This document shows, piece after piece, positions 41,301-63,950 of a stretch of DNA of 64,000 bases. Positions within the stretch are counted from its first letter, which is position 1. Each line of letters begins with the position of its first letter. The position numbers and the translations under genes were made by a program. The stretch comes from Raillietiella orientalis (lineage: Eukaryota). Under the pieces are notes generated by a model. That model did no database searches. It was not told the DNA's origin and saw only the letters and a list, made by a program, of their open reading frames with translations. Location of the stretch: positions 1,054,001 through 1,118,000 of the forward strand of contig JAYWIR010000016.1 of the NCBI GenBank assembly GCA_036172245.1, given 5' to 3'.

Positions 41301-44300
41301 CGCTTTTCCCGGTTCCAGGTGTGCCGTTTGCGGCACGAGAGCGTCACGGGTAGGAGACGCTCTGACAGCGAGCCGCCAAGGGAGGGAGGGGAGGAGGGAA
41401 AGGGGTACAGGAGGGGCTCTCCGCTGCCCCGTCTCAGCCTGTCTCTTCGTGATGGTGATCCGTTGCCCGGGACGTCCTTTTCGATGAGGAAGGAAGGTCG
41501 AGAAGAACCAGAAAGCAGACTGAGGATACTCCGTGAGAGGGCGTTTCACTGTATGGGAAGGGAGAAGGGAAGAGGGGAGGGAAGGAAGAGTGCAGAGCGG
41601 GTTGTTGGGCTGTCCACCACTGCGAGGGTGCAAAGGGCATGTAGGAGGAAGAGAGGAAACTTACCCCTGTGACCCCGCTAGGAGCACAGGGAAAGTCTGC
41701 CTTTTCCGGAACGCGGTTTCTTGGCGCAGGAATGTTCCCCTCCTCCCTGGGACCGGCTGGATTGCACCTGCCGTCTGGGACTCTCGCCCCATCAGATCTT
41801 CCATCTTCCCTTTTTCCAGTGATTACGTCATCGTCTCCCCCCGCGTCCTCCGGTCCAACTCGGATTTCCACGTCGCCATTAGCGTCTTCGGGGCCGAAAG
41901 GAACGTGGACGTGCTGGCGGAAATAACACAGCAGGACGAGGCCCCCGTCACCGTGTCACGGCAGCGGGTCTCCATAGAAACGAACACGACGCAGATCCTC
42001 CAGTTCCAGGTGGGTACGCTCTCCTCGCCGCAAAGGATCGCCTCTCTCGAAGAGTCCAGGGAACGAATCCGGGATTCGCGCGCTCCTGCACACCCCCGTG
42101 CGTCGCCGGCGAGCGAGTGCGTCGACTCTCCGGGGCGAAGCGCACGCATGCGTACGCGAAAGCGTACACGCTGGGAAGACATGCTGGATCTCTTCTTTAT
42201 GCGACTCGGCCGGCGTCTTTCTCCCTTTCAGTGCACGCGTGTGCACGTATGCATGCCTGAGGGTCGCCCCCAGGTGCCGTTCGCTCACGTGTACATTTGT
42301 ACGCGTGCTTACGATCCCTGTCCTCCCGTGAGCGACGGGCGTGTACGGCGGAAGCGCCTTCGCGGATCGACCCTCGCACCCTTGGGAATTCGCGCCTACA
42401 ATGGCGACCGGTCCTTGAGCTTCTTGCACGCCCGCTCGCATCAGCTCCTGCAGCTCCTCGTTCGCTTCGCGCGCCTCCCTGTCTGACCGCAAGGAGTCGG
42501 GAAAGCGAGACGGTGCTGGGAATCGGGCTTCCCCCTCGTCCTAGCTGTGGAGGCCACGCCACCTGGACTCCGCCACCCTATCTCCGCGTTCGGAGCTCCC
42601 CTATTCCTCCCTCTTCCTTTCGGGAGGCCCAGGCTTCTGTATCCCGCTTTTTTGAAGGCCAGTAACGACCTCCCGGGGAGATCGTTGCTTTTGGCCTGGA
42701 ATGGTGGAAATTCTTTTCGAACTCCCAAAAGAACCCCATAGGAAACCTCTCCCTTATTCTTTCCGGAGGGACCCTCCGAAAAGGATCCTCTCCCTGTTTC
42801 CTCATCTGGAGAGAATCCCGAAGGGACTCTTCCCGTTTTCTCTGAAGACCGCTCCCAGAAGGGAGCAGCGCGCTTCTCACAAGCTCTGGAGAGGCATCCT
42901 TCCAAAGGAGGGTATCAACGAGATCCGTGGCAGTCGGTGGAAGGTCGCCTCGAGGGGTAGAGTGGGAAGGACGCTGCCACATTTGCACAACTGGAGGGGA
43001 ACCCGAAGAGAACCGACTCCTCAGTTCCTGGAAGGATCCCAGAGGGTCAACTTTCAATCCCGGAGCCAGTCAACGGTGGCATCCTGTTTCCGGAAGCCAA
43101 CCGAGGCCAACTGGCGTCGGCCCTTCACAGAGGTGGGGAGGGGGGAGGTTCGAACTCGCGACGCCAGGTGCCGCCTGTGCCAGCTGCAGCCGCACGGCCG
43201 CCAGAGAGGGCCTTTTCTTGCTTTAGCTTCGAAATCCACGTGGACACCAACACGGCCTTCCTTAGCCAACACGTCTGCCGCCCGGGTCTGCTACTTTGCT
43301 TGGAATTCGGGCTACTCCTGAGGTGGAGCAGCCGCGCGCCAGGAGTTGGGGAACGCTCGCTGTCTCTTTCTACCCCCTACGCGCGCCGGCTGGATATTCC
43401 TGCTGACCCTCATCCCTGGAGTCGCTGTCCCGTCTCTTCATCCGTCCTTCCTTTCTTCGGCTTCATCCCGGACCGTCATAGTCGACGGAAATGGAAGTTT
43501 CCCGAGGCTGGCGCTAGGAAGAGGCGAGGAGAGAAGAATTCACCCGGTGGATGGATATGCGAGGGAGAGACACGGCCTCTCTCTGGCTCCCGGACCTCCT
43601 CCAGAAGCGTTTCCTTCCTGAGAGCACATGCCGGGTGCACGGATGAGCGCCGATCCCGCCTTGCTCGTGTCTTCTTTACCCCGCCTGGAGCACCTTCGTA
43701 GCGAATTTTCCTTGATGACCGGGAGAGGAACGAAGAAGGGTGAGAAATTTCTTCCTCCTCGCCACCCTCCTTCGCCTCTCGAAGCCTCCATTGCTTCCCT
43801 TCCATCCAGCTCCCCCTTTCCGTTTCTTTTTCCCCTGCCCTCTGGTATCCGGGAAAGATTCGCTAGAGTAGCCGATAGGCGCGCGGCACAGCCTGGCATC
43901 CTGTGCATTCACAGAGGGAGAGGGAGGGAGGGGGGAAAGGAGAGCTTGTGGACTGGATCGAGCCATCACGGCTGCCGCACGAGAGGGCATGGAGGGCTCC
44001 ATACGCGCTTCTGCTCATGACCTCAGGTCGTGCGAACGCTGGGACACTTTTTGCTCTTCCGGACGAGAGGTCGGCCAGGAAGAGGGAATGTTGTGGGAGA
44101 GGTGAAAGATTTTTCCCATAACCTCGGGAGAAATTCAGTTCATTGCTGCCAGAGAATCTCACGAACGGGGTGAGGATGAATGGAATTGGACAAGGATGAA
44201 TGGAGGACGATGGTGAATAGAGTAGGTCGAGATGAATGATAATGATGGTAAATGGAAATAGGACGAGTATGAATGGAGTAGGTCGCGTATGAATGGAATT

Positions 44301-47300
44301 GGACAAGGATGAATGGAGGACGATGGTGAATAGAGTAGGTCGAGATGAATGATAATGATGGTAAATGGAAATAGGACGAGTATGAATGGAGTAGGTCGCG
44401 TATGAACGGAGCAGGATGGTGAATAGAGTAGGTCGAGGATGGATAGAGTAAAACAAAGATGAATGGAGATAGGGCGAGTATGAATGGAGCAGGACGAGAA
44501 TGAATGGAAGATGATGGTGAATGGAGTAGGACGACGATGAATGATAATGATGGTGAATAGAGATAGGGCAAGTGTGGATGGAGTAGGAGGAGGATGAATG
44601 AGGAAAGGAGGACGAGGAAGGCAGTCAATGAGAAAGGGGAATGACAGGTCCGAAAACCTCTCGTCTCTTCGAGTTGCTCCCGATGTCGGAGAGATGCCGC
44701 CGGTCTCTCTCTCCAGACGACAAAGTTTGGCACTGTGCGGCAGATGGAGCCTGGAGTGGCGACGCTGCCGAAACAAGCGGTATGGACTCCCGTTCGCAAA
44801 CTGCGCGGAGGGATGGTCCAAGGTTTTCAGTTGGTCAGTGAGCTGCTGGGTGCGTATGCAGCGCCTCGTTGGAAGTAGGCCCTGCGGCGCGCGCGCCCAC
44901 TCGTCCTGGGTTGCCGTCGGTGATCCTCTCCGGCGAGCCCGAGGCGACGACAGAGAGCCGCTACAGCACCGCCTAGGGCGGCTTTTCGAGACTCGAAGAG
45001 CCACGAAATTAACGGCCGCATCGAATCTCGTGCACGCGCTTTCCGCCGACCCACGCAGCGGCTCGGGGAGAGGATGGGAAGCCGCCGCTCTGCTTGTGGG
45101 CGTCCGCTTTCTCTTCGCTCCCGTAGGAGACGTGGCGTGCTCTTGCTGACTCGGTCACGCCGACGCATCCTCAGGAACGCCAGAGAGCAGATGGGTAGGC
45201 TGCACGCTTCCAGGAGCACGCAGGGGCGCGATGGGGGTGCATTCTCTCGGCTGGAGCCAGGTGGGGAAAGAAAGGAAGGCAAGAGAAAGCTATTGTTGCG
45301 GCCCCGACCCGGAGACGAGACCAAGGGAACGTCTTAGATCCTCCCCCTATCCCATCTTCCTCCCACACGGGGTCAGGGGGCTTGGCTGGAACTGGGTCTC
45401 CCCACGGGTGCGATGAGTCGGGCGGACTTGGGATGCGCCCTTGGGAGCGCCAGCTGGTGGAGGAGCAGCCTGTGACCTGTAGCGGAGAGAACTCTGCCCA
45501 GCCGGAATCCCGGTAGTCTGTCACGGTGATGGCGGCTCCTCGCGCTCGGGCAATGCAGGAGAGGTCTCCCTCTCGGAGGACCTTGGCCGCGGCTCCCCTT
45601 TCCGGGACGGGGTGGGCGCACGCGGGGACAACGGTCGCCGGGAATTTTCGTGTTCTTCCTACCCCTTTCTCCTGCAAGACAAACATGAGTGCTCAGTTTG
45701 AAGGTCGATTCTCTCCCCTTCCCTCTGAATTCCCTCTGCTTGAGCATTCGCCGCGCCCCGCCCCGCTCCCAGAACCCGGATAGAGCGCTCAAACGCGGGT
45801 CATCCCTTCGTCCAGAGAGGGTGCTCTTCCTCGCCGCTGTCCTTCCCTTTCCTGGGAGCCTCAGGTCTCCTGCTCCCTCTCACCCTTGGCCTGCCGACGG
45901 CGTTCCGGTTTGCGTGGATGGGGGGAGCCAGTGGGAGGTGGAGATTTGGGGGGATCGCAGAACGGAACGGGGCCGGGTAGCCACGGAGACCCGGTCCAGC
46001 TGTGACATCTGGGGGCGCGTCTTGGGCTCACGCGCGTTCGCCGCTGCCTTTTCTTCCTCCTCTTCCCCTCCCTCCATCCTCCACGCTTCGCCCGTCGGCA
46101 CCCTCTCCAGCCCGCCCCCACCTCCCGCGAAAGCGCCTCGCCTCCTCGTCTCTGTCGTCGTCCTGGTGACAACACGGCTCGCCTGCGTTCTTCCCCTGAA
46201 CCTCCACCTACGTGGACGAGTTCCGGGCGTCCGAAACGAAGAGCCTCGGGGCTCCTCGCTGCAGAGGCGGGGAGCAAAACCAAGGTCATCCTTCAAAGGG
46301 GAGGTAGCGCGCACAGGGCAGGCAACCCAGGGGCTAGGATCGGGTGCGACCTTCCTCTCTTTGCAGAGGGAAGCTGTTCCCCCCTCCTTCCCTAAAGGAC
46401 CAGAGGAGGAAAAACGAAGAAGGGGGAGCCTCTTCCACGATCTCGGCTGCCCCGTCGGGGCGCTGCTGCGCTCTCCGACTCAGCATCCTGCTATCGCGCT
46501 GCTGCACACGTCCGCCGGAGCAGATTCTCCGCGTCGCCCGTGGAGACGCGTCCGTTCGGGCGCGCGCAGGCGCGCACCTACCAGCCTTCTGCGCGGGCTC
46601 GACGCCACCCGTGCCGGCTGCGGCGAGGCTGAGGCGCCCTCAGCTGGCGAGAGCTGAGTTAAGAGGAGAGCCGATCTCTCTCTCTCTCTCTCTCTCTGAG
46701 GCTGATGGCGGCTTCTCTTCCGACGGCCGGTGTCCAGTCTGTCAGACGCGAGCGCGGTCCTCCGTTTCGTTTCGTTCTTTTTCTGCCCGCGTTGGCGACC
46801 GCGTGGCTGCGGCGGCCTCCGCACGCGGCACCAGGCCGTCGCGGGTTCGAACTCCCAGGTGGAGAATCGACGCCGAGAATGGGGGGTGCGTCGTGGGTTT
46901 TGAGTCCCTCCTCCCTGCAGGATGACGCTGGTTGGCCCCACGGGCTTCGGGTGTGCTGAAGTAGTTGAGAGACAGTCACGCCGGGGCATTTATTTATAAA
47001 AGATAAACATACACATCTGTGGTAGGACGTTTGATCCTGCCACGATACTTAAAACTACGGGAAGGAACCTACCTGCAACCAGCAGGCAGGCCGGTGGGGT
47101 TCACCTCGGGGGATGCACGGGGGATGGGGAGACGAATAAAAAGAGAAAAAAATAAAACAAAAACATACAGTCAAAAAATGGGGGGAAAGGGTTCGGGAAG
47201 GGATCACTTTGTGCTGGCGGATGTCCTCTGTATCCTTTCTAAGGATGCTGGCAAGTCTCTGTTTCAAGACTCCCAGATTGGGTCATCTTGACGCCATTCT

Positions 47301-49849
47301 CATGATGAGACAGCAGGATAGATGGCGTCCCTGTCGTTCTGGCCTTCTCTGGCGTTGCTCCATGCAGCCACGGTCCCGCCGCGTGGGCAGCAAAGTGCTG
47401 CTGGGGATGTGGCCTGCGTGAGGGCATCGCTCAGGAAGAGGCTCTTTAAAACGTTTTTGGGGTTGTCTCCGGGGGTTCCAAGGGTCGCAGCAAAGCGTGC
47501 CTAAAGGGGCCGGAGGGCAACACAATCCACTAGGAGGTACAGGATGGATTCCTGCTCCCCGTACCTTGCACATTTTGGGTCTGCTCCTCCCTCCCCTGCC
47601 CAACGATGCTGGCGGGCGTTGCACGGGAGGTCCCAGTGCAAAAGCAGCAGAATTGCCGACTCCTGTCACTTTAAAGGGAGGGCTTAGGTGTTCATGAATA
47701 CCGGGGGTCACTGTAGCTCTTCCTCCGGAATACCTAGTAGCACACCCCAGAGCAAAAATCCATGAGGTCGAGCAATCGGTGCTACAGTGGTGGGAGCCGG
47801 AAACCAGATGTCCCTGTTGACTGGCCGGGAGTGGAAGTTGACCCTTTCGGGGGATCTTCCAGTTGGGCATTCACGGATCCGATTCCCTTCAGGATTCCCC
47901 TCCGGTTGTGAAAATGAAGCCGCCCTCCCTCCCCCCTCAAAGGGGAATCCTCCATCGCGTAAATGGAGTTCGTCGATACCCTCCTAGAAAGGTTGCCTCT
48001 CCAGAGTGTTGAGAAGCGCGTTGCTCCCTTCAGAGAGTGCCCTTCACCGAAATTGGGAAGCGTTACTTCGGGATTCTCTTCGGAGGAAACAGGGAGCGGC
48101 TCCCCTGCGGGTTTCCTTCAAAGAAGAAATCCAGAAGCGGATCCTTTCCGGATTCTTTTAAATGAAGACATGCGGAGCAGCTCTCTCTAGGGATCCCACC
48201 GGAGGGAATGAGGAAGACATGGTTCCCTTCGGGGCTCCCTCTCAAGCGTAGGAGGAAGGACTCCTTCCTCCTTCTGGATTCATAAGGTGGTTCCTCTCGG
48301 GTGACTCCTCATAAATTGAACAGTTACACGTGCCCTCGGGTGGAGTGGACAGTGTTGAAGAGCTTCGTGAGCCCTTCCCTAGGGAGTCGAATGGTGCTTC
48401 AGCACTCCTTGAGAACCAAAAAAAGGAAAAAAAAGGAAAACCTGGAAAAAAAAGGGAAAAAAAAGCTGGGAGGAAAGCGGAAACGGAAGAACCCGAAAGG
48501 ATCTTCACCATCCTTGGCCAACAGCAACGATCTTCCCATGAGGTCGCTACTAGCCTTAAGAGTGAACCCCCCCATATGACCGCTGAACGATTCGCCTTTG
48601 CTACCGGTGGCCATCTTGGGCAGCCGACAAAGCCCTCCGTTCAGGAGGGACCTTTGCAGGAGCTTGTGGTCCTGGTGAACGACGTAGGCGGTGGTCGTCA
48701 TCCCCTGGTCCCCTATCGAGGGCAGTCCCGGGAACGCGTTCCGACGTTTCATGGAGGGAGAAGGGAGGAAAGCAGCGCGCCTCCCCTTCTGCACGCCGAA
48801 GGAGAGTCTCCGCCACCTCGAAGTCCCTCGGGCCCTCGCTCGCGTGGGTCTCTATAACAAAAAGGCATACCTCCTCGTGTAGCGCGTATTGCCCAACGAC
48901 ATGTCTCTGCGGATCGCTAGGAGGCCAGACGGCGCCGAAGCTACTTCAATCCGGATGGAAAGGGGATGGATGGGTCGTCATCCTTTCGAAGGCATCTTCA
49001 CACTCTGAGGACTCGCCTTCGGCATCCCGTTCATCATAATCACTGCTTGTCCCGTCCCCATTCCTGCTGGAGGCACTGCGAAATCTCTTTTGTCAGTTTC
49101 CCGTCTTTCTCCTTCCCTCCGGCAGCTCCCGAGCGGCACAGAGTGCTCGTGGGTCTCGCGCATCCGTAGACTTCCGCGGTGTGAGTAGCGCTGCAGTCGG
49201 AGCGCGGAACCGGGGGCCACCCCCTGCCCCTCCCTCTGGAAAGCAGAGGGGAGGGGGCTGCAGCGAAGAGGGAAGCGAAGGGTTCTTACCGATTCCTCTG
49301 GTTTTCTAGGTGGGGGAGCTGAAACCGGCCAGGTACCGGCTGTCGATCTTCGGCAATGGAGGACTCCTGTTCAGCAACGTGACGGACCTCGTCCACTCGC
49401 AGCAGAGCCACAGGGTCTTCGTCCAGACGGACAAGGCGGCGTATCGGAATGGAGACATCGTGAGGCTGCGTCTGCTCATCGTGAACCTCAAGCTCAAGCC
49501 GAGCGTCATCGGCGCCGTCGACCTCAGTGTGCAGGTCTGCGACCCTGCCGGGGGGGCGGGTTGGTCGGAGAGGAAGGAACCACTGCTCGCAGGACGGGAA
49601 GAGGAACGTTGTAAAGCGGTGGAACCGGGTGTTCACCACCAAAGGGGTCATTGAGAGGAGCTTCCGGCTGTCCAGCAGGCCCGTCTTCGGGGAGTGGACT
49701 CTGAACATCCACTTCCTGGACCAGATGTTCTCGTCCAACTTCACCGTGGCGGAGTACATCCTGCCGAAGTTTCAGATCTCCGTGGACGTGCCACCGTACG
49801 TCACCTTCAAGAATTCCTCGATAGTCGCCAGGATCACGGCGAGGTGAGG

Positions 49850-49880
<31 letters not shown>

Positions 49881-52800
49881 TCCTGGGAATTATGCCTCCA
49901 GTCCGGTAGGGTGCGCGGGCAGGGGATCGGAAGGAAGCAAAGGGGTGGACGGAGTCCTCGTCTTCAGGGTTCCTGAGCGCGAGGAGGAAAAGCTGCATCC
50001 CGTGAGGAGGACCTTGGGGGTTTCCGCGCCACCATCCCTGGAGGAGAACACTGATCGCTCCGACAGAGGACGACTTCCGGTGCGGAGGGTGGCTGGTCGT
50101 TCCTTGTCTTTCTTTCTTTCTCGTCCTTACGTTCCCGTCCTCTCGTGCACCACGCTCACGGCCCTCATCCCTGACTCCCCACTCCTCTATCCTCTTCACG
50201 GAAGCTCCTGGGCACCCGCTCGCTGGGAGCGCCAATCTGGAGGTCGTCCAAGTCCACACCTGGTTCTTCCCCTCCGTCTGGGAGGAGAGCACCCCCAAGG
50301 GGGTGCTCTCGGATCGCTTGCACTTTCTTCTTTCCAGTTGCCAAGCGAACGGCTCGCCCTTAACGCCAACGTCCCCCCCCTCTCCCTCAGACCGGCCGGC
50401 GGCTCGCGCCATGTGCCGGAGCGCGAGGAAGTCTGGAGCTCTCTGACCACCGCGCTCGAAGGAAGGACTGGGGGAAAGGGGAGGTTGGAGTGGATGACCG
50501 ACGAAATTTGAAGTCGGAGGACCTTCCGGAAAATTTTCTCCATTCACGACCTCTCCCCCTCCGAAGACCCTTTGCGCGACCCTGCCCTATGGAGGACGCC
50601 GTCACCCTTTCCCTCATTTGGAGGGACTGAGCTAAAGGTCGTTTCACCCCTCCTGATTCTCTTTCTCAGGGTTACCCCTCCTTCCTGAGGGCGGTTCTCC
50701 CGTACCTCTCGCACCAAGCCTGCGCGATGGGGTTGGATCGCAGGCCCCCGAAAAGGTCTCCTGCCGGCTCGGGTCTTCTCGTGCTTGGGAATTCCTGACG
50801 TCCCGGAGGACTATGCTGGGGAGGGGGGGGGAGCGATGGGAGGCTGCGCGGACACTGCAGAGGGAGAACTCGAATCGGCTCTCCGACTTTTGGTCCCGAG
50901 GGTGGATACCGTTCAGACCTTCCTTGGAGGTCATCTCCCACAGGATGGGAGGGGCTGGGGAAGAGAAGCGGGAGGGAGGAGCGCCCTCGGGTGGCAACCT
51001 AGAGATCCGGATGAACCCCCTCCGGGCAGCTCTGGAGGGCATCTGGTCTCGGGGCCCTCGGTCGTCTCCGTTGAGGGTCACGGCACTCTTGGCGGGAGGG
51101 GGTGGGTGGGGACAGGTTCCACGGATGGTCCGCTTGCCTCCAGGTCTCCCCCTTCCTTCTGCCCCTGGGAAAGGCGCTGCCGTCCCTGTGGGAGTTCTTT
51201 GGTTCGGCTGTCATCTCCGACCTTCAGCTCCGAACGCTACTGACGACGAGGGTGAGGCAGAGAGGAACTCCCGGGGATTCGTTCTCGAAGTCCGGAGGGC
51301 ATGGGTGATTTCTCTTGGATGGGAGACTCCGAAGGGGCAGATTCGACGTCCTCTGGATGCCGAGAGATCCTCGAGGAGAAATCAATCGCGCCCAGAACGC
51401 AAAGGAGCCATCGGTGGTAGGTAGGCAGCGGGTGGTGGCGGTGATGGAAGTCATCGCAAGCCCCGAGGCCGTGGTCACGACAGAAGCACAGCGACTGAGC
51501 CCTCCTGCTCCTTCCTTCTCACGCTGTCCCGCCTTCTCTGCTCCCGTTCTTGGACCTTCAGTCCGAAAGGGAACCAGGAGGATCCCTAAAATTCTGGGAC
51601 GCGGCAGAGGATCAGAGCCAGTCCATAGGATCCAGGGCAGTGTTTCTGGCAAGAAAAGGAGGAAAGGGGCAGTGAGAAAGAGGGGTGCGTCAACTGGAAG
51701 AAACGCCCCGGGTTCCCTGAGCGCTTCTCTTGGCTGCTGCGGTCTCGAGCTGACGCTCCTCCCGCGCACAGGAAGTTCCCAGGTGTGAATGGGGCGGAGT
51801 GGCGCTTGCCCATCCTTTCGTCTTGAATCCACCTTCCCGGTTTCCTCGGCCTGACTGAGTCTGGGTCTCATCCCTTCAGGTACGAGCACGCGCGACCCGT
51901 AAAGGGTGAGGCCATCATCGAGGTGACCCCCCTGTACAAGTCGAGCAGGCTGCAGCCGGTGTTCACGGAGCCCCTGAGGAGGGTCGTCCCCATTGAGGGA
52001 GTCGCACTGGTCGCCTTCCACCTGGCCAAGGAACTGGGGTAAGGGAGTGGCTCGACCCCTCCTTGCTGTTGCGTCGGAAGCAGGACCCGGGCCATTCCGT
52101 TCTTCCTTCTTCCTTCTCCTCCTTTCCCAGAATTTTCGACGACGACGAGAGGAAGCTGAAGATCTCCGTGCGGATAGAGGAGGCCTTGACCAAGAGAAGG
52201 GAGAATGTCACGGTCACCATGAAGATGGTTAAGAACGTGTACAGCATCCAGCTGATCAAGTCGTCCCCGAGGTTCAAGCCGGGTCTCAAGTTCACAGCAT
52301 CTGTAAGTTGCGTCCTCGCCCTGGAAGACGGACGATTCCCATTCATGCATTTCCGCTCCTGTTGCCGAGGGGTGGAAGCGGTGCTCTTCTGGAGGGGGTT
52401 GCCGATCTGGGAGGCGCCCCCCTTTCGGAAAGATCACGCCCGCGATCCCTGTCCAGATAGTCGCACCCTGTCAGAAAGCTCTAGATATGAGAGAGGGGGA
52501 AGAAACGTGTATCAGAAGTCGTTCTCTCCTTCTGTCAGGGATTAGTTCCCACCTCTGTCTTCCCCCGAGTACCGGACGGGAGGACGGGTGGGGCAGAAGT
52601 CAATTTGGAACGATGTGACTGGGTTTTACCCTCAGGCGCCGTTCGTTCCCTGATCCTGGAGTCTCCCCCTCCCCTTCCTGCTCAGTCCCGGGAGGAGACG
52701 GACTTCCTCCTGCGGGAAAGAAGCGGGGATGTGGAGAGTCTGGTCATTCCCGGAGGGGGAGGAAACGCATGTGTCCTCGCTGAAGAAGGGGGTCGGACCG

Positions 52801-55800
52801 AGTTCGAGGACCAGGAAGGGAGCGGGACGCCGCTTGAAGAGCGAGACGCTGGACACACTTGCCGCGCGCGCTTTTTCGTTGGTCCCGCCTCTACCCTTTC
52901 CCCTTTTTACCGTTTTCCCATTGGTCATCCCGTTTCTCATTGGTCCCTTTCTCTTCCTTCGTTAGCAAACTGCTCCCTTCTCCCCTTTCCTTTTCTCCGC
53001 ACTGAAGAGATGGGAGGAGTACGCGCGCTCAGGAGAGTTCTCCTACCTTTTCTCCCCGTTTTTCTTCCCGGGTCAGCTCTTGTCGACCTCGGGTCGCGGG
53101 AGGGAAAGCTGCGGAGCGAAGCGTAAGTGCGCGGGGGACTGTGCTGCCGGCATAGAGCGGTGGCGGAGAGATGTCCTGCTTAGCGGGGAGAAGGCAGCGT
53201 GGCTGTGCCCTGTTGGTAAGGGGGTCGAGGGAGGAGGGGAGGGGCAAATGAATGAAGTCAGAGGGAAAGGGGGACTCGAGGGGGACCCGGAAGGAGAGAG
53301 AATGGGGGGAGCAGCGGAAGAGGCTTTAAAGAGGAGCGGTTGCAAGAGAAGAGGGTTGGCGGAGGAGGGATAAGGGGAAGAAGGGAGCAAGCGAATGAGG
53401 TCGGGAAAGGCATGAGAGGGAGAGGAATTGAAGAGAACGTTGGACGAGTAAGAGGGAGTCTAGAGAGGGAAGGGCTGAAGGAGGAAGAGGGGGAATCTCA
53501 CCAGAAAGTCGGGATGAGGCGGAAGACGATGGGCCGGACCCCCTCCCGATCCTCTAGTCATCCTTGGACTTTTCTTAAAGGAAACCGGGCGGGGAAACGA
53601 GGAGAACCCGGGTGTTTTCCGATGGTTTTCCTGGAGGGAAGGGTATGTCTTCCCGCGTGGAATCCAAGGGTAGGACGAGGACTGACCTTGCGGGAAGGAC
53701 TTTTCTACCGGCCATTCCCGGAGCCTTTCGGGAAGGTTCCGGAATGATTGGCGATCCTGGAGCGTCCTCCACAAGGGATCCCCGATAGAAAGGCTGGAGA
53801 TGAGAAGCGGACGACGCTCCGCCCGCAGCCGCAGATGACCGGGCCTACATCGCTGGTCCTGTAGAGCAAGGGGGCCTTTCTGCCTGGACGAATAGCTCCG
53901 GTCGGACAGGCGGGAGTGCCCGAGCGGAAGGGACCGTCCGAAGTACCGGGGTACGGTCTGAAGCGAAGGATCAGGGTGAAACGCTCTCTGGACGCTGACT
54001 TTCCCAAGATGCGAGTGGGGAAGGCGGGAACCGGGAGTGAAGAGGGAAAGGTGGTGGTGGTGGTGGTGGTGGTGGGAAGTCACGTCAACTCGAGGGCGTC
54101 ATCTTCCTGCTTCCCGGCAGCTGAAGTTCTCGTACCCCGACGGGAGCCTCGTGAGGGACAGCACCACGCAGGTCGTCGTGCGCCACGGGTTCTCCAACCA
54201 GACGCAGAACTACGCGACGTCCCGCCACTGGATCTCGGAGGAGGGGCTGGTGGCGCTGCACTTCTTCCCGAAGCCCGACGACACCATCTTGGGAATTGAG
54301 GTGCGCATCCTCACAGACGGAGGGAGGGGAAAAGAAGGGAGTCCCCCGTTCCCCACGGGGGCGTCAACATGCTGCTTCCAGGTGTCCTACAAGGACCAGG
54401 TCGAGAGCGTGCAGTTCGTCGAGCGCGAGCGCTCCTTCCGGGACGAGTACATCCAGGCGGAGCTGAAGACCCTTCGCCCCAAGGTAAGCCGACCTCTCCC
54501 CTTCCTCCTCCAAGATCGATCTCCCGACCGCTCCTCCTTCCTTCCCGGCTGCCCTCCTCTCCGAGGTGAAGGACTGGACGCTTTCCAGATCAACGAGGAC
54601 ATCATCGTCGGGGTCAACTCCACTCTGCCGATGCCACAGTTCGTGTACAGCGTGTTCGGGAGGGAGGACCTGGTGTTCGCCCAGACCGTCGAAGGGGGCG
54701 GAGGGCTGAAGACAAAGGAGTTCCACTTCCGGTGCACGCCGGCGATGTCGCCCAAGGCGACGCTCCTCGTCTTTTACGTCACACCCTACGGGCACGTCGT
54801 GACGGATTCCCTGGAAGTGGTGGTGGAGGACACCTTCCTGAACACGGTGAGCCATCACCGTGGTAGAAACAGCAGGGATTTGGTGGGGAGAAACGCACTC
54901 AACCCTCAAGCCATCGGGAGGAGTCATGTGGGCCGGGCGTCTCCCCTTCCTCCCCGGCCTTCCCTCGTGCGAGACAGGGAGGTCCCGTCCTCGCGGTCGC
55001 ATGACACCTTCATTTCCCAGCTCTCCTCAAGAACAGGGACCGCCTTCCCAGACTTCCTGGATCCCGGAAAAAACCACACGGTTCCCATCTCTTACTCTCT
55101 GCTTTTGGACTCTCTAGGGGATCCGAAAGCTGATCGTCCTCTTTCATCCCCGCGCGGACCTATAACCTCTCGCGGATGGGGCGGCACTCGCAAGAGGAGT
55201 GGGGTGGAAAAGAAGGAATCGCGGCCGCTACACGAGGAGGAAGGCGCTCTCTTTTGGCGAACTGAAACTCCGGCCGACCCCTCCGGGCAGCTCTGGAGGG
55301 TCTCAGGAACCTCGGCATGGGAGGGGGGGTGCGGACAGGTTCCGCGGGTAATCCGCTCGCCTTCAGACATTCCCCTCCGTGCTTCACCCCATCCCACCCC
55401 TCAAGCCGCCCGGTCCGCCTCTCCCCTCCGCGGTCGCATCCCGAGGCTTCCCCACTCGGGGAGCGAGGAAGGGGCACGCGCAAAGGGGTGGCTCCTCAAA
55501 CGCTCTGCCGGACAAACTGAGCAACCGGGTGCGCTCCAAGCTCAACTCTCGCCAATTCTTCCCCTCCTCCCTTCTTTTCAGGCTGAGATCGAGGTTCCGC
55601 AGAAGACGGTGGAAGTTGGGCAATCGATGACGCTAACAGTCGTGGCGAAGCCGGACTCCTACGTCGGGCTGATGGGCATCGACGAAGGGGCGGTTCTCCT
55701 CAAGTCCGGGAACGAGATCCTGCAGGTATAACCCCTCCCTTCCCCCCTTCTCCCCTCTCGCTGCTGAGACAGTTCGGATGGGAGGTGCCGCTGCCGCGCA

Positions 55801-58800
55801 GTGGTGCCATCCTTCCGGACCGGAACTGTACTCGTGGCACTTCTCGTGTGCCACCGATTGTTGATGTTGTTGTTGTTTCTGTTGCTGGGGGAGATGGAAA
55901 GGTGGGGTAAGAGGCACAAGCTGTGCCTCCCGCCCCACCTAATTTCGCCGGATCAGTCCACGGACTACCCGGGCCGGGAAGCAGCAGCCATCACCACTTC
56001 ACCATGGCAACGAGAGTGAGGTTTCCGGTGCCACCTTGCGGTTCCTCTGCAAGAAGGAAGCTCACAACCGTACGAGGAGGGAGTGGAGAATTTGGAAGCG
56101 CAAAGAGAGAGGGATCGCAGAAACGGGAAGATGGATACAGCTGAGCATATCTGGGAACGTCCCGGTGTGTCCCAGGGATTTGGGGTCGGATCCCCTTCCG
56201 AAGGACCGCAGTGCCCGAGGAGCGCACGCGAAAGCTCCCTGACTTTGCTTCGCGGATCCTCGTACCCGCGCAGGAGCAGAGCTCCCTCCATGCTTTCGCT
56301 CCTGCGCCCTAATGAAAGGATGTTTGCTTCCAGAAAAAGGTCCTCAGTGCCATCTCCGGAGAGGATTCCCAGGAAGCGTGGCTATCCAGCGGCTTTAAAA
56401 AGGTCAGTTCTCCCAGCGCCCGGCGCTTCGTGCCCTTTCCTGTCAGCCGCCGCTCCAACCTTTCACGTCTTCCCCGCTCTGCTCTGGGAAGCCTTCCGGA
56501 ACTTTGCAGCTGTCTTTGCAGGATGCAGTGATCATGAGCAACGGATTCGTTTCTGGGCAGGAAGACACAGGTAAAGAAGGCCAGATTTCAGCATCGAACC
56601 CGTTCCCTTTCTGAGCGAAACATAAAACACCTGCCAAGGGAGGAGACGATCTCTTCTCCTCCTGACTCCCTCTTCCTTGCCTTCCCTTCCCCGCTCCCCT
56701 TGAGAGAGGAAAAAAAAAGGCGCTCCGCGGTTTTCTGCCTCCTGACTCTTCTCCTTGCGACTCGCTCCGCTTCCGCGAATCGAGCTGTTGCGGCCGCAGG
56801 CGCCTTGCCGAGCGTTTGCTCGTATACGCAAAGCTGTCGCGATGGAAACCGGGCGAATGAAATCTATGCGAACAGTCCTGCTTGCTTCGCGCGGGCTGTC
56901 AGGTGCTGAGAAGACCAGCTTTGGGAGCGCCCAGAGCCTTCCTGTCCGTCGCCGGGCGCCTTCCTTGCCTTGCTTCGGGAGATCTTCTGGCAGACTCTGC
57001 GAGCCGCCGCAACGTGGCTCCAAGTAGAAAGAAAGGAAGGAAAAGAGGAAGAACCGAGGGATACTCCTTGAGCGCAGACGGAGAGGTCAGACGAGGCCGA
57101 AGAGTCTCTCCGATGACCTCGTTTCGCTAAATTTGCTTAAAAAAAGACTGCGCGCTGGATCGAAGTATCGCTCGCAGATGAATCTGGAATGCTGCTGGAG
57201 GAAGCAGCGACGAAAGGATGGACGGGGTGCGGGGGACAGGAGGAGGAGGAGGTCAGGAAAGGAGGAAGAAAAGTGGGGAAAGGCAGACATAGGAGCAGGT
57301 GCGATCCTGGGGAAGGCGAAGGCTGGTGAGGTCTTCAATTAGCTTGAGCACGCGCTTCCTCAGAGTGGACCCGTCCGGGAGGGGGAATGAATCGTCCGAA
57401 GGAGTCCTCCCGCAGGAGGAACCCTCCGCGAGCGAGATCCGGGATTGCTTCCACAAAAACTTGTGCTCCCAACGACCCGCCTCATGTGAAGAGCGCGACC
57501 GACCCCCGGAGGCAGCCGCTTTCACGACGCAGGAGAGACGCCCAGACTCAGACGTCAGATGGGCACGTTGCAACAGCCTCAACCACCGGAAGGCGTCGCA
57601 CGAGGACTGCAGAGAGGACGTCGGGGTCCACCCCCTTGTTCGGGAGGGGCCGGGACTTCCTCCTTCCCAAACTAAGCAGTGCTTCCCTTGGGCAGCCTCC
57701 TTTCGAAATCCTCCACCCCTCCAGGCACCTTCGCGAAACCCTGAGGGAGGACTGACTCATGGAGGGGCCTTCCTTTGGTCTCGGAAAAGCAGGCCCGTTG
57801 CCCCAGCGGTCAGCTGACTGCTCGAGAGGATAGCTTCCGGGAGAAGTTGCTTTCTGGACACGCTGGAGCTCACCGAGGGACAGCTAAGAAGCTGATTCTC
57901 GATCTTGGGGAGGCGGACAGCATGCAAAAATCTGATGCTGAAATCCAAGTAATCCTGATGGATGCACGGCAGAATCTCGCGCGGTTGGAATCCAGACGCT
58001 TGCAGTTTGAGCAAGAGGGGGTAGCGGGCGATTTTTCTGCCCTCTGGCGTTCTTTCCGGAGTTCCTCGCTCTCTTCAGGAGACGCGCGGATGCGGGTTTT
58101 CCTTCATCCCGTGATTTCACATCATCAGATTTTTTCTTTCTTTCCTTTTCTAAAAAAAAAATTTTCTCTTTGCGCTATACCCCGTTGAAGGAGCGGTCCA
58201 TTATGAACCGGAAGACAGGGTCTGTTCTCTTCGCATCCTGACCGAAGTTCTGCTCCTCAGAAGAGGTCCGCTTCCTGCCCACCCGACCTCCACTAGCCGG
58301 TCCCTACGCCTTTTCGAGGATCCCAAGGCCGGTCAACGACAACCCGCTCATGTTCCTCTCGAGGGCCATCAATCCTACCTGGATCTTCGCCAACGGAACC
58401 TCCAAGTAAGCGGCCTCGAGCTGCGGATCCCTGACTCACGAGGTTCGCGACCAGCGCACACAACAGGAAGACGTTCGAGGTCACCGTGCCGGAAAGCATG
58501 GCCACTTGGAGGCTCACGGCGTTTTCTTCCAGCCCCGTCTATGGAATCGGGGTGTCCAAGAATCCCGTCAAGGTGGGCAGGAGGTGGAGAGGGGCAGGCG
58601 GAGATCGATCTTGGCCCTTCCTAGATACAAGCTGTGAAACCTCTCGTGCTGAAGCTCAACGTCCCGGAACGCATCTACATCGGAGAGGTGATCAGTGCGG
58701 AAGTGGGAGTCTTCAACAACTTCAACCGGCAAGCATCCGTGGAGATCGAGTTCCGGATACAGGAGGAGCTGGATTTCATCGAGAGGGACGAGGACTTGGA

Positions 58801-61800
58801 CAAAGACCGAGGTACCTGTTCAGGGACATGAAAAGATGCCGCTCTTCACGTTCCACGTCCCGGCGGAGCAGCCTCCGCACGGACTCTGAAGCGGAGTGTC
58901 AGCTTGAGGGGAGGAGAAGTTCAGGTCCTCAGCTTCCTGCTGAAACCACTGAAAGCTGGCGTCACGGAGCTGCACGTTGAAGGACGCAGCTCTGCAGGGA
59001 CCAGCGTGGCCGAGCGCACCCTGCTCATTAAGGTACAGTTTGGGCTGCCTTTCCTCTCGCGAGCGTCTGCTGCGCCCTCCTGACGGTTCCGTTTCTTTCA
59101 TCTTGCATGTTCGCCTGCCTCGTCCGTGACAACGAGCGTCTCGGAAGGCGGGAGAAAGAGCGTGCAAGAAGAAAGAGCGAACGGAACGAGATGTAAAAAC
59201 AGTACTGAAAGCAGTTTTAACTTTCCAGAGCGAAGGGGATCTTATAGAGAAAAATCTGGTGATCTGGATAGATTTGGAGAAGAATGGTGCATTCGAAAGG
59301 AACTTCACCGTACCTCTTCCGAAACAGATAGTCCCCAACTCATCCTTCGTAATGGTCGCTGGAGCTGGTACGTGTTTTTTTATTTTGGTCCATCTTGCGA
59401 CGTGGTAAATTATCGGGAATCGCTCTGAGGTGTGACCCCAGCCGTGTACATCACGTGTACATCCGTGGGTTCGAATGCACCTCCGAGTCCCGGAGCGCCT
59501 TACTCGCCTTAAGTGCCGCCATCTTCTCGTTCACTTGCGGTGTTCCACCGTCTTCGAACGAATTTTGAAACCGAACCGATGCCGCCGGGCCTGCTACACC
59601 GGAGCAGAGGTCTGCAATGATTTCCATATGGTCACTGCCATGGAAATAGCAGGCGGAATACTTCCAGCAGCATTCTTTTGAACCAGAGTCAATTTTTACA
59701 CTATGTACAAGCAGATCTCCCATTCTATGCTGTTTACGATTATCAACAACCTTAATAATCTCCAATGGAATCGTTTGGAGAACAGCATTCACATAGGGAA
59801 GTCACTGCAGGGATTCCATTCACCATGGTTTGGTGAAAAATGTTGAAGTGATGCAAAGGAATGCAACTTCAGTCGATGCTAATTCGGGGACACTTGACCG
59901 AAACGGAAAGATCTTCAAGTGCAAACTGATACGACAGGAAATGGCTTTATATTTGTGACCATCCTGTCTGTTTTTCATGGCGGCAAGAAAAAGATGGTTG
60001 GTTGTGTACTGTGTACATTCGCGTCACTCCCTATGTTCCTATGGCTTCCTCATCAGTGTACGTGTTACACACGCAGACAGCAGAAAGAGTATCTTTTAAA
60101 AAAGAATCCTCATCACATTATGCATTGCATGGATAGTTAGGAATGTAATAATGCGATGAAACGTCATTTGGATGATGGAGTAGTAGAGTAGCATTTACAG
60201 AATAACCTCAGTGGTTTCTAGGAGTTGGACCTTTTTTTTTTTTTTTTTTACAAAAAAAATATGCATTTCCAATTTAAATTTCAATAAGATAATCTCTCTA
60301 CTAGCCCTTCAAAATTACAAATGTACTGTGGCTTGTTTGTCTCTCCGAATGATTCTACTGACTGACCAGGATCAATCTCAAATTTATAGGATGACTAATT
60401 TTGCCACTTGAATTTTCTTCGAAATGATGAACGAGGAAATTTTCATTTGAAAGGGAAGGAGGGATTGGTCTCCATGAAGACTTCCAGCATACGCATGAGC
60501 ATAATTTCGGACCTTTAAACACAGACGTTGCCATGCTCAGGAAGTCAGGTTCACCTCAGGGGGGTCGGTCACCAAGCGAGTTTGCGAGACAGATTCGAAT
60601 TTTCGTCAGTGTGTCTTTTCGATGATTTCAGTTTTACGCGTAATGAGTTCATGATGAGCTTTGCTAGCTGTTCTTAAGGAAGCATCGCGCTCATAGGTAT
60701 GGGGTGTACACATACCTTCCTAGTGTGTATACACATACATTCGCAAGTATAACCTGCATGCAGGGAAATGCAGCTTACTTTGAATTAAGCAGTTTTCCAT
60801 TTTGTTATCGACACCTTGTGGCGATCTCAAAGCTACACCAGAGGAAAGTAACGACGTGATGCGAAGATGCTGCTCACCCCAGGGTCGCCATCGCAAGCTC
60901 GACATTCCTGTTGTTGAATCCTACATTTGTCCGTTTCTCCCACGCTCGCATCACCAGGAAAACGAAATGCAATTGAAAACGGCCTCTCCGGTTCCGATCA
61001 CCCTCGTTGCATTTTTCAGCGGATCCGATGGCGCCTGTAGCTTCGAACATCGGTAAGCTCATGGAACCAGATTTAAGCAGCGGAGAGCATACGCTTGTGA
61101 ATTTCCTGCCAAATATCTTTCTGGTCGACTATCTTAAGGTAAGGCACACTTGCACGTTTCGTTATTTCTGCTGTGACTCGAAGAAAACAAACCAACTGAG
61201 TCGAACGATACTCTCGAGAGTCATGGACGTCATGGAACAAGCTTATCAAACGCATGTATCTTTTCGGCACGAAGACGGATCGTTCAGCACCTTCGGCAGT
61301 CGTGACCAAAGCGGGAGTGTTCTGTAAGGAAGGTCGGATGCACAGATGCGGGAACTGGGAGGCTTCCCCCCCCCCCCCCAGTTTCACCGCTCTTACTGTG
61401 TCGTCATTAAATCGAGCAGAGGCTCATCTTAAACTTCAAAATTCCGTCGTCGACGATGCGATAGAATGGCTCCTTTCCCGGCAGACAGTAGAAGGGAAAT
61501 TCACAGAGTATGGCCCCATAACCGTTCAGTACATCCAGCGTGGTGAAAGAGATGTACCACTCACTGCGATGGTGCTCCAAACCCTCTTGGCAGTGCAAGT
61601 AAGTCCATTTGCAGTTCGAAAGGCATTCCACTCCAAAATGCATTGTTTGATCAAATATAAGGAACCAAACAGTGCCATTTGGAGGAATTTAAAAAGGGAT
61701 GACGGGTCCCTGTATGCATTTGGAATATGACGATGCTTTCGCCCACCCCCATTTACCGTCCTCAAAACAAACAAACGAAAACAAAAACAATTCCAATTTG

Positions 61801-63950
61801 CTGACGCTATCCTTGTTAAATGACATGGGAATATCTATAAAATTGCATTTTCCAAGGGAGACAGTTAGACTGAATTAAAAAATAGCTGAGAACATCTAAT
61901 CATCGGCATGCAAACGAAAAGTCCACCATCAAGTATTTCTAACGTACGAACTCATGTTTGTGTGCACATTTCCGCACATTCGAGCACAATCCTATTTAGA
62001 ATTAGATTCCAAAACTGCTTTTACAAATTGTTTGCTGATCTCGAAAACGTTGCTTCTTCTTCGAAAGACATCTTTCACTAGAAAAACGATTGTGGCTGTG
62101 GCCACAGCAGTGTTCTCAGAGCACAGCAATGCCTTTGGCTCGGTTAAGATTCGGGAGGATAAATGGCAACTGGAATCAGAAATGCCACTGCGCCACGGGC
62201 GTTGCACCGAGTTCTCCGTAGAAAATCAAAGCATCCCGTTACCGCTGCAAAAGTTGTGAAGTGCAAGGCGGTTCTTGCGAAATGCACTTTTTGAAATCGC
62301 TGCACTTAGCATTTATTACAATGAGACACATTTGGCATTGTGGCATTATCAAAGACCTCAGCCGACGGGATTTGCGATGCGATTCCTGTGGAAAACAGGA
62401 CGATGTTAATCCTACGTTACTGGGGTGTGGTGCAATCTGCAAATTGTGTATCTGGAATTATACACAGAGCTCGAAAATATAAACCGTACGAACAAGAAGA
62501 AATATGCAGAGTTGATGGTTTTATTGCAGGGAACACGGCAGTATGCAAATTACATCAACAGTGCAGTAAACTATCTGGCCCGTCAGGCGCCACTCTTAAG
62601 CGACCTTTATGCATCGGCCATAGCTTGCTTTGCCCTGCATAGAGTAAATCATCCCCTATCTAATGTACTTTTAGAAAAACTGGAGAGATTCGCTAGAACA
62701 GAAGGTAATCTGAAATAAGAGACTCACAAGGCTAATTTCATTTAAGATGATATGAGGTACTTTAATTACAACAAAACTTTCCCCAAAAACGCGCCTTGGT
62801 TTTCGTCAGCGACTTCATCGGAGATTGAACTGAACAGCTACATACTAATGGTATATTTGGAGAAAGACTACAAACTACAAGCCCAAGAAATGCTTGTTTG
62901 GTTATTACATCAAAGAAACAAAAAAGGAACTTTTGACACTGTTCTGGTAAGCCAATATCCTTAAATGCATCTTTAATATCATCCAATAGGCAACCATAGC
63001 AGGACTGGAAGCCATCAGCGCTGCTGCTCCTCTTATGGCGCCAACGTCAGCAGAAGTCAGCATTCATCAAGATAACATTCTTAAGAAAAACATATTCTTG
63101 TCGAAAACATCTCCACTGAACTACCTTTCGCATAAAGTAAAGTGCCCAAAATCAGAACTTGTAAATTTCCTTTCCACAGCTTGATTCAACCAAAAATATC
63201 CTGATTAAGGCCAGAGGTAAAGGTCATGCCATCCTTGAGATCACCCTTTCGTATTCCCTGAATGTGAGTGGGGCCTATCCCTCATTCAAATTGGATCCCC
63301 AAGTGGACAAAAATTCAGATCGCTATTATTTGCAAATGAGTATTTGCACAAGGTACATGCAATCTCAAGAAACACATATTAAACATCTTTTAAGTTTTAA
63401 TGAAAAAGCGTCGTCAAACATGGTCATCATGGATGTTTCTTTGCCGTCGGGATTCACAGCTGACCAAGAGATAATACATGGTATCGATCGAAAGTACTGG
63501 GATGACATTAAACTCGTAGAAACTAAAAATCGTGGGCAAGGTTTCTTTATTTACTTTGAAAAGGTAACGACATGAAAAACGCAAAATTGTACACAGTTCT
63601 ACATTTAGCTAAATGAGACGGAGGTGTGTGCAACCGTTTCTGGTTACCGCACACATCTGGTAGCCCATCAGCAACCAGTAGCTGTGAAGGTGTATGACTA
63701 CTACAACATCAGTAAGTAATCTGCAAATTTGACGATGATGTCACTGCGATAATCCTTTTTAGCTCGCCAGGCACGTATTTTCTATCAACCAGAGATTACC
63801 TCTGTTTGTGAGATCTGTCAGCCACCATGTTCATTGGGAAAATGCTCTATATCGAGCAAACTGGAAAAAAACGAAATGACATCAGGAAGCAATAGTCCCT
63901 TAATTCACTTATCGCTACTTTCCATACCTCTATTTGTTTCCTGGAAGTAG
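38388..63950 (+). CDS. CD109: Thioester-containing-protein family member (CD109/insect TEP3-like, A2M fold), about 1410 aa, 27 coding exons; signal peptide, degenerate thioester site, GPI-anchor-like tail
   Basis: Phase-consistent exons: 38388-38443 (MTSAAFLFPWIFSFAYSLP), 41820-42009, 49310-49534 (VFVQTDKAAY), 49593-49843 (FTVAEYILPKFQ), 51880-52038, 52131-52302 (FKPGLKF), 54121-54300, 54382-54483, 54589-54846, 55582-55725 (SYVGLMGIDEGAVLLKSGNEI), 56334-56402, 56522 (or 56510)-56570, 58261-58405 (TRPPLAGPYAFSRIP), 58455-58572, 58625-58811, 58872-59032, 59229-59367, 61020-61138, 61184-61323 (RHEDGSFSTFG), 61382-61598, 62530-62704, 62747-62946, 62990-63136, 63180-63352 (LDPQVDKNS), 63395-63563 (SNMVIMDVSLPSGF), 63609-63711 (VKVYDYY), 63763-63950 (CEIC...C...C, SGS and a hydrophobic tail). 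The symbol denotes the family, not proven orthology. Confidence 0.92.
38800..39040 (-). mobile_element. Possible Maverick/Polinton pPolB N-terminal fragment in TEP intron 1
   Basis: VLHREIFAGEDAVDIFITRL...PLEALTDLQR resembles the 'YRGEDAxEKFIxRL...PMxPLTxEQ' segment of Polinton-like polymerases. A single weak match. Confidence 0.25.
42657..43203 (-). mobile_element. Structured SINE-like repeat, copy D (internally deleted), in TEP intron 2
   Basis: Minus-strand head GGCACCTGGCGTCGCGAGTTCGAACC (near 43147-43172). Body homologous to copy C (GATACCCTCC, GCCTCTCCAGAG, GAGAAGCGCG-TGCTCCCTTC). 3' stem-loop at 42657-42696. Confidence 0.7.
44176..44625. repeat. Higher-order minisatellite: two near-identical 113-bp units plus degenerate units
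   Basis: Unit starts at 44176, 44289 and 44402 (period 113). Each unit is built from six 13-24-nt variants of ATGAATGGAGTAGGACGAG. Confidence 0.85.
44760..46540 (-). mobile_element. Decayed Gypsy pol remnant (RNase H to integrase) in TEP intron 2
   Basis: Minus-strand fragments in order: ADVCSSAIAG and WKRLPLLRFSS (like TDAS..AIGA and WQPLAFFS), ARYLPFEG*P, APPSRPCVLL (like PLPPSxGxxYLL), and EWARAPQGLL...CIRT...LDHPSAQFANGSPYRL (like WxxxLPxVLLGIRT...SSAELVYGxPLRL). Confidence 0.42.
46792..48555 (+). mobile_element. Structured SINE-like repeat, copy C (longest; interrupted by an 821-bp insertion)
   Basis: Head GACCGCGTGGCTGC...GCCGTCGCGGGTTCGAACTC (B box 46844-46854). Homology to copy A stops near 46957 and resumes near 47779. 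Core at 48273-48373, A-rich tract about 48418-48465, 3' stem-loop 48516-48555. Confidence 0.72.
46958..47778. mobile_element. Unidentified 821-bp insertion inside repeat copy C
   Basis: Absent from copies A and D. Flanked by GTGCT direct repeats (46953-46957 and 47779-47783). Noticeably less GC-rich than its surroundings, with AATAAA on the minus strand near 46990. Confidence 0.5.
51005..51165 (+). repeat. Dispersed repeat fragment, shared with 55268-55390
   Basis: CCCCTCCGGGCAGCTCTGGAGGG and GGACAGGTTCC-CGG...TCCGCT-GCCT-CAG occur both here and at 55268-55390, in different TEP introns. Confidence 0.6.
55268..55390 (+). repeat. Dispersed repeat fragment, shared with 51005-51165
   Basis: Same CCCCTCCGGGCAGCTCTGGAGGG and GGACAGGTTCC blocks, lying within the 735-nt TEP intron. 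Confidence 0.6.
57770..58010 (-). mobile_element. RTE-clade LINE C-terminal remnant
   Basis: CKRLDSNRARFCRASIRITW, FLHAVRLPKIENQLL and LLPEAILSSSQLTAG...LLFRD parallel the RTE segment KRLxxFHxRCLRRILxIxW...VLxRAxLPSIE...RLPKxILYGEL...LRFKD. Confidence 0.5.
62000..62300 (+). mobile_element. Possible piggyBac transposase C-terminal Cys-rich remnant in a TEP intron
   Basis: Frameshifted GRCTEF / KIKASRYRCKSCEVQGGSCEMH resembles the piggyBac cysteine-rich domain. No termini found. Confidence 0.33.

Follow-up and report, generated by a model that had tools for sequence, protein, structure and literature searches.

The window, a stretch of 64,000 nucleotides of Raillietiella orientalis DNA (contig JAYWIR010000016.1, positions 1,054,001 to 1,118,000 of the forward strand, numbered here from 1), carries on its + strand, from about 38388 to 63950, one gene of the A2M/TEP superfamily in which the thioester motif GCGEQ is replaced by SSGEH. 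We consider it rather probable that this is, in a non-insect pancrustacean-like genome, a complete gene for an arthropod iTEP/CD109-like macroglobulin of the TEP3 ("ancestral iTEP") kind, which has lost the thioester and has been kept as a functional, non-covalently acting protein. TEPs are complement-like opsonins of arthropods whose hallmark is covalent tagging via the thioester, and each independent loss shows that the macroglobulin scaffold is reusable without the covalent chemistry.

The replacement is read directly in the codons. At the position of GCGEQ, nucleotides 61076-61090 (+) are AGC AGC GGA GAG CAT, that is S S G E H (residues 900-904 of the spliced model), in an exon that reads ...GKLMEPDLSSGEHTLVNFLPNIFLVDYLK. 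When the read-through open reading frame (ORF) 60977-61324 was compared with all PDB chains using phmmer (cut-off E<=0.01), nine chains were matched, belonging to human CD109 (two), A2M (three), A2ML1 (one) and Anopheles TEP1 (three). The best match was human CD109 (9fx2/8s3o, E 3e-9), whose thioester stretch aligned onto ...MEPDLSSGEHTLVNFLPNIFLVDYL of the window with Gly changed into Ser, Cys into Ser and Gln into His. Codons and alignment thus bear out what an earlier sequence-only reading of this DNA had claimed, namely that GCGEQ has become SSGEH and that the thioester Cys and Gln are both lost. As for the relatives, GCGEQ is present in 21 of 25 aligned rows and in 19 of the 23 HMMER matches of at least 1300 residues, and the CGEQ core is kept in 54 of the 57 long aligned proteins. 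Because the Cys is a Ser and the Gln a His, the predicted protein is unable to form a thioester bond.

The sequence-only reading had also held that the catalytic His is lost, and here the observation stood but carries little weight. Codon 61524-61526 is GTT (Val), inside EYGPITVQYIQRG; this Val is residue 1015 of the spliced model, 114 residues downstream of the Cys position. The sole PDB match of this next ORF piece was a single chain of Anopheles TEP1 (4lnv, E 8.5e-5), in which GKVWHKDMQGG of TEP1 is aligned with GPITVQYIQRG of the window, so that Val faces the catalytic His. However, relatives carry either His or Asn at this position, Asn being found in the thioester-bearing TEPs of Cherax and Ammothea; since the His is not universal among thioester-bearing relatives, Val adds little to the argument. 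The ORF pieces holding the two sites both matched Pfam TED_complement (E 6e-12 and 1.4e-8).

It could be argued that the altered motif is a sequencing or assembly error, or that a canonical GCGEQ exon is used alternatively elsewhere in the gene. Independent reads do not cover 60676-61342, and some TEP genes are known to use alternative exons in their variable region (passages of PMC5489563 and PMC7016707). Yet three of the five motif residues are altered, together with the flanking MP-x, and since three separate codons and their flanks differ, no single-base error accounts for the change. Moreover, when every + strand ORF piece beyond 38 kb was searched with a TEP profile, a single TED start came up, no C-G/A-E-Q/N peptide with a TED context was found in the six frames, the 19 loose matches to back-translated GCGEQ were scattered outside any exon context, and tblastn with 176 relatives, of which the + strand hits were inspected, gave no second copy on that strand. 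The intron 59368-61019, in which an alternative GCGEQ exon would by the sequence-only reading's own account have refuted it, yielded none in the profile, six-frame and back-translated motif searches, nor any Pfam macroglobulin match. An artefact or an incomplete view is thus scarcely credible. One low-coverage run (X1, guessed to be DNA, share 0.06) gave contigs of 151-232 nt identical to intronic and exonic spots of the window; none of them covers 60676-61342 or shows a joint in the gene, so that the run is silent on expression and on the codons. None of the six minus-strand ORFs lying over the site had a Pfam match, and Rfam gave no match in the window.

The exons around this site were set from full-length HMMER relatives, tblastn and a home-built profile, and the splice sites by phase and consensus. 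The resulting model has 26 exons (4314 nt, 1437 codons) and 25 introns, all GT-AG and 11 of them only 42-58 nt long, and its sole stop is the terminal TAG at 63948-63950. The intact frame announced by the sequence-only reading was therefore recovered as an open frame with canonical splice sites, but with 26 exons and not 27. Homology backs 23 of these exons; exon 1 and two small bait-region exons (56077-56166 and 56510-56570) are tentative. The span 61020-61598 consists of three exons (61020-61138, 61184-61323 and 61382-61598) with introns of 45 and 58 nt between them, and a run of 14 C (61366-61379) forms the pyrimidine tract of the 58-nt intron 61324-61381.

Domain content was assessed with a Pfam scan of 150 + strand stop-to-stop ORF pieces between 48.9 and 64 kb. 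Macroglobulin-family matches were obtained for 11 of them, in the order MG2, MG3, A2M_BRD, A2M, TED_complement (four pieces) and A2M_recep (two), and the domain order of the model is MG1-MG6 with the bait-region domain, MG7, CUB, TED and MG8. By this series of macroglobulin domains the predicted protein belongs to the A2M/TEP superfamily. LDLa (PF00057), ANATO and NTR were matched by none of the 150 pieces, and no LDLa-like Cys-rich D-x-S-D-E pattern was found in 38-64 kb; with no LDLa, ANATO or NTR module, the protein therefore seems unlike Mcr or C3/C5.

The gene ends directly after MG8, a cysteine signature and a short tail. The signature C-x2-C-x3-C-x4-C (63807-63845), of a type described for iTEPs in passages of PMC7016707 and PMC5969219, aligns with C.IC...C...C of the Cherax, Malaya, Limulus and Drosophila TEP3-like proteins. 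It is followed by SGSNS and by a 17-residue tail (16 largely hydrophobic residues and a final Lys), with the stop directly after and no cytoplasmic extension, and the same four relatives show the same end layout, that is the Cys signature, a small-residue stretch and a hydrophobic tail. The candidate signal peptide and the GPI-like tail reported by the sequence-only reading are thus both present in the model; likewise, its statement that neither an LDLa module nor an Mcr-like transmembrane (TM) end was seen agrees with the Pfam scan, the Cys-pattern scan and the short tail, which is not of the TM-plus-cytoplasmic type.

We then looked at the relatives of the protein. An exhaustive HMMER search of 1.84 billion representatives, with the read-through ORF 53980-55728 as query, returned 148 matches at E<=1e-3, the best showing 40-48% identity over single domains, and the matches examined by name (31 of 31) were A2M/TEP/C3-family or unnamed hypothetical proteins. 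The named nearest relatives are a Cherax TEP, a Malaya TEP, a Limulus CD109-like protein, a Caligus CD109, a pycnogonid TEP and a TEP3 of the Drosophila willistoni group. Among the word-index searches, the one with exon 63180-63563 found 11 insect iTEPs (35-43% identity) and nothing as near as an ortholog, those with the ORF pieces 58435-58977 and 60977-61324 gave no match at the thresholds, and the ESM Atlas gave generic A2M_recep clusters only.

In a careful IQ-TREE analysis (31 rows, 1433 columns, LG+G4), with which two quick trees agree, the model lies inside a pancrustacean iTEP/CD109-like clade (UFBoot 100/aLRT 99) and outside the insect clade (support 99/99); for the whole arthropod iTEP clade the SH-aLRT is 100, and the C3-like row is a distant outgroup. 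The sister of the model may be Cherax (56/95), as in the careful tree, or Caligus (aLRT 93), as in a quick tree, and its highest identity to any relative is 35%. The TEP phylogeny that the sequence-only reading had proposed as a check, built without Mcr rows, thus nests the protein in the arthropod iTEP clade. The motifs which that reading had quoted point the same way; indeed, TRPPLAGPYAFS is identical to the Cherax TEP at 12 of 12 residues, and LDPQVDKNS resembles the mosquito LDPQVNKNS. The first of these motifs (58281-58316) is also nearly identical in a copepod CD109-like protein, despite an overall identity of about 35%, and occurs in a weaker form in a Drosophila TEP3-like protein; it looks like a conserved element of this iTEP subgroup. 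Among the matches, three further iTEP-clade proteins are without a thioester, namely P0034 and P0077 of Musca (GGAEE and GGSEQ) and P0089 of another assembly (DGGEQ), and the Musca pair sits on a very long branch (1.06) within Diptera.

A thioester-less arthropod TEP might also be a member of the Mcr clade that has secondarily lost its LDLa module and TM end. Passages of PMC7016707 give three marks of Mcr, namely LDLa in the place of the bait region, a TM helix at the C-terminus and a mutated thioester site; the last of them (Cys changed into Ser) is shared by the window protein and is found in Drosophila Mcr too (a passage of PMC5489563), but it is not exclusive to Mcr. According to Palmer and Jiggins (a passage of PMC4833078), all but two of the thioester-less arthropod TEPs fall in the Mcr clade, of which Daphnia has four copies. 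Our trees contained no Mcr sequence, so that exclusion from this clade rests on the features of the protein and on its iTEP nesting. Besides the absence of LDLa from the window pieces and from the 38-64 kb scan, the tail is short and GPI-like and not a TM helix followed by a cytoplasmic end. The exhaustive HMMER search brought up iTEP/CD109/A2M/C3-type proteins only, with the LDLa pattern matched by none of 177 retrieved proteins and found neither in six Pfam-scanned proteins nor in the 11 insect iTEP matches. In addition, the protein is nested among thioester-bearing arthropod iTEPs, in a clade whose branching follows that of the species; Mcr is older than the arthropods and present in molluscs too (a passage of PMC7016707). 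We therefore regard membership of the Mcr clade as very improbable.

Returning to the reading of a functional, thioester-less iTEP, we considered whether the gene is alive or decaying. A recently dead or silent gene, that is a decaying thioester-less paralog still without stop codon or frameshift, would go with the long end branch, with the extra divergence of the TED/MG7 region, with a bait region that is not confidently modelled and with the retention of family-conserved columns, the lowest of the ten rows tested (134 of 200). In contrast, the 23 homology-supported exons are all open with GT-AG borders, and the other two frames of the coding sequence (CDS) contain 73 and 42 stops; among all point changes, 3.75% would produce a stop codon, and the chance of finding none drops to 0.037 at 2% and to 3e-4 at 5% neutral divergence. 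Many of the lost conserved columns are conservative replacements, and neither the 12-residue TRPPLAGPYAFS motif nor the Cys signature at the C-terminus has been lost. The three motif changes, with many more in the TED, suggest that the loss is old. For these reasons a dead gene appears unlikely, though by no means negligible.

The distribution of the changes is also informative. In the TED the model keeps 42 of 69 conserved columns, similar to the 41 of 70 and 45 of 69 of the thioester-less Musca iTEPs and below the 56-65 of 66-67 of six thioester-bearing rows. When identity is taken relative to the reference proteins, the model reaches about 0.9 of the normal level in MG1-6 and MG8, and about 0.7 in MG7/CUB/TED. 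Such a pattern would fit a scaffold that has been preserved while constraint on the warhead region was relaxed. A general relaxation of constraint could also lie behind it. The open frame, together with the accumulation of changes at the site and in the TED, is indirect evidence in favour of constraint.

Several points weigh against a complete gene kept in function. Only 67% of the conserved columns are kept and the end branch is long (1.14 versus a median of 0.49), both of which could reflect a loosening of constraint too. The placing of exon 1 and of the two bait-region exons is guesswork; leaving out 56077-56166 and 56510-56570 still gives a closed frame, and since there are several ways of closing it in that region, the frame can firmly be called intact only over the 23 exons that homology supports. 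The HMMER and word-index searches gave no ortholog for a dN/dS estimate, the GPI-like and non-TM nature of the tail was judged by eye and from the tail alignment, and the trees, as said above, hold no Mcr row.

The individual exons, all on the + strand, were placed as follows, splice sites being part of the evidence for exons 2, 3, 5 to 8, 10, 15 to 17 and 21 to 23. The tentative exon 1 (38388-38443), which is without homology support, has an ATG, an 18-residue hydrophobic leader and a phase-2 donor; it was the top-ranked of three ATG-to-GT candidates passing the filter in 30-41.8 kb, and its phase fits exon 2. The macroglobulin series starts with exon 2 (41820-42009, MG1 start, profile match at positions 24-94, E 2e-12) and goes on with exon 3 (49310-49534, MG1/MG2, Pfam MG2, profile E 9e-21) and exon 4 (49593-49843, MG2/MG3, Pfam MG2 and MG3, profile E 1.5e-27). 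A minisatellite (44158-44636) lies in the 7.3-kb second intron, with units of about 20, 57 and 113 nt and two exact 113-nt copies. MG3 continues in exon 5 (51880-52038, profile E 7e-6), MG4 is found in exon 6 (52131-52302, profile E 2e-10), MG4/MG5 in exon 7 (54121-54300, within the profile match 54118-54861, E 3e-32) and MG5 in exon 8 (54382-54483, profile search). The bait-region domain A2M_BRD is split between exon 9 (54589-54846, Pfam A2M_BRD E 6e-16, tblastn start 54589) and exon 10 (55582-55725, end ...KSGNEILQ, profile E 8e-10).

The bait or hypervariable region itself contains the two tentative exons 11 (56077-56166), with a weak resemblance to the Cherax TEP and weak splice sites, and 12 (56510-56570), which reads ...DAVIMSNGFV..., resembles GV.V.TNG of the relatives and has a good acceptor and a good donor. 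The bait region (55726-58260) could be modelled only tentatively: an exon similar to the '...EE.VE.LE...' of relatives is bordered by weak splice sites, and we took a 'GPGL' stretch at about 57.65 kb, where the DNA is GC-rich, for a chance match. The variable region ends in exon 13 (58261-58405), which includes the 12-residue motif and was placed by tblastn to the Cherax TEP (53% identity); its 5' edge is tentative, as 58248 and 58266 fit too. MG7 (the A2M domain) occupies exon 14 (58455-58572, Pfam A2M E 4e-7, acceptors 58442 and 58466 being in frame too) and exon 15 (58625-58811, Pfam A2M E 1.7e-5, profile), followed by exon 16 (58869-59032, MG7/CUB, profile E 7e-5) and exon 17 (59229-59367, CUB, profile E 1.4e-5).

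The TED starts in exon 18 (61020-61138), with the dead thioester site (Pfam TED_complement E 6e-12, CD109 alignment), and goes on in exon 19 (61184-61323), a 15-residue alignment gap corresponding to the 45-nt intron 61139-61183, and in exon 20 (61382-61598), with the catalytic-residue position (Pfam TED E 1.4e-8, TEP1 alignment). Exons 21 (62530-62704, Pfam TED E 9e-5, profile) and 22 (62747-62946, Pfam TED E 1.3e-6, profile) belong to the same domain, whose end, with the CUB, is in exon 23 (62990-63136, weak profile match). Exon 24 (63180-63563, CUB/MG8, the receptor-binding domain, Pfam A2M_recep E 4e-9, profile E 7e-31) includes LDPQVDKNS, exon 25 (63609-63711, Pfam A2M_recep E 1.8e-7) continues MG8, and exon 26 (63763-63950) holds the iTEP cysteine signature at 63807-63845, SGSNS at 63882-63896, the hydrophobic tail at 63897-63947 and the TAG.

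The gene straddles the 3' edge of a block of about 35 kb (24000-59000) with 56-67% GC, between flanks of 32-44% GC. Along the gene the exon GC drops from 0.62 to 0.39, and the GC at third codon positions from 0.83 (first 2400 nt of the CDS) to 0.46 (last 1900 nt). The long ORFs tested in the GC-rich block were all without a Pfam match (13 of 13) and therefore look like chance ORFs of GC-rich DNA. Neighbours in the window are an EPS8-like gene at 5983-10764 (+), with PTB, EPS8 spectrin-like and SAM_3 pieces, a GRAM-domain piece at 11654-11875 (-) and, at 15112-15495 (-), a FeS_assembly_P (CIAO2B/MIP18-like) ORF of 128 residues in one piece.

If the gene is indeed a functional iTEP without its thioester, the protein would still be produced, maintained by selection and exported, probably with a lipid anchor holding it at the cell surface, while covalent attachment to microbes or proteases would no longer be possible. 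Any role would then have to come from non-covalent binding by the macroglobulin scaffold, possibly still set off, as for Mcr or C5, when the variable region is cleaved. The monomeric A2ML1 depends on its thioester for protease inhibition (a passage of PMC9156758); as monomeric relatives need the thioester to inhibit proteases, such a role is unlikely here, and the window protein is probably not a protease inhibitor. By analogy, non-covalent recognition or scaffolding, perhaps after cleavage, would be the most plausible role, with Mcr as a precedent; the roles put forward by the sequence-only reading, a non-covalent receptor, decoy or junction protein, are conjectural. The thioester loss would have arisen inside the iTEP lineage, independently of Mcr. 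A further-reaching proposal, finely balanced and tipping slightly towards doubt, is that a TEP3-type macroglobulin with a GPI anchor lost its thioester long ago, in a poorly sampled pancrustacean lineage outside the insects, and that selection has maintained it since; this would be a second recruitment, independent of Mcr, of a TEP scaffold to a purely non-covalent role at the cell surface. If this were true, the invariant TRPPLAGPYAFS beside the shortened bait region would be a candidate partner or processing site.

The sequence-only reading had presented the case as an independent loss of the thioester. The iTEP nesting supports independence, but the novelty was overrated: losses are already documented for the Mcr clade in all arthropods, for two thioester-less arthropod TEPs outside Mcr noted by Palmer and Jiggins (a passage of PMC4833078), for tsetse TEP2, for the snail BgTEP3 and for the Musca proteins. 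Since Cys loss in the TEP3-type group is already published, the gene adds a further case, of modest interest. It provides a crustacean-side TEP3/CD109-like example, mainly useful for comparing selection on thioester-less TEPs, and by itself opens no new question.

Complement C5, of the A2M family, needs no thioester for its work once it has been activated by proteolysis; unlike the window gene, it has ANATO and NTR/C345C modules, neither of which was found among the 150 ORF pieces. Human CD109 (8s3o, 9fx2), the best structure match, shares with the window protein the macroglobulin architecture and a C-terminal tail that looks, in the window protein, to be of the lipid-anchor type, but its GCGEQ is active and it inhibits proteases (a passage of PMC12927315), whereas the window protein is predicted to be unable to form the bond; the CD109-like proteins of deuterostomes and molluscs form a separate clade in the tree. 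Drosophila Mcr (TEP6) resembles it in being without thioester, with Ser at the Cys position (a passage of PMC5489563), and is membrane-associated; its part in phagocytosis and in septate junctions (a passage of PMC4833078) is a precedent for a function of the non-covalent kind; it differs by its LDLa module in the place of the bait region and its C-terminal TM helix (PMC7016707, in the same passages as above), neither of which is seen in the window gene.

BgTEP3 of the snail Biomphalaria, with Cys changed into Ser (again in passages of PMC7016707), and the Musca pair P0034/P0077 are, like the window protein, of iTEP type, outside the Mcr clade and mutated at the thioester site, and the Musca pair shows a similar drop in TED conservation. 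They belong to other lineages and carry other replacements, BgTEP3 keeping the Gln, and in the alignment the Musca proteins show neither the Cys signature nor the tail at their ends. The window protein shares with the tsetse TEP2/Drosophila TEP3 group motifs (a TRPPL.GPYAFS-like stretch and LDP.VN.NS) and tree neighbourhood, the D. tropicalis TEP3-like protein lying in its sister insect clade. Tsetse TEP2, grouped with Drosophila TEP3 as an 'ancestral iTEP', likewise has its thioester Cys replaced, by Ser or Asn (passages of PMC5969219), whereas Drosophila TEP3 keeps GCGEQ; unlike both, the window gene lies outside the insects, has also lost the Gln (changed into His) and the preceding Gly, and is far more divergent, being at most 35% identical to any relative.

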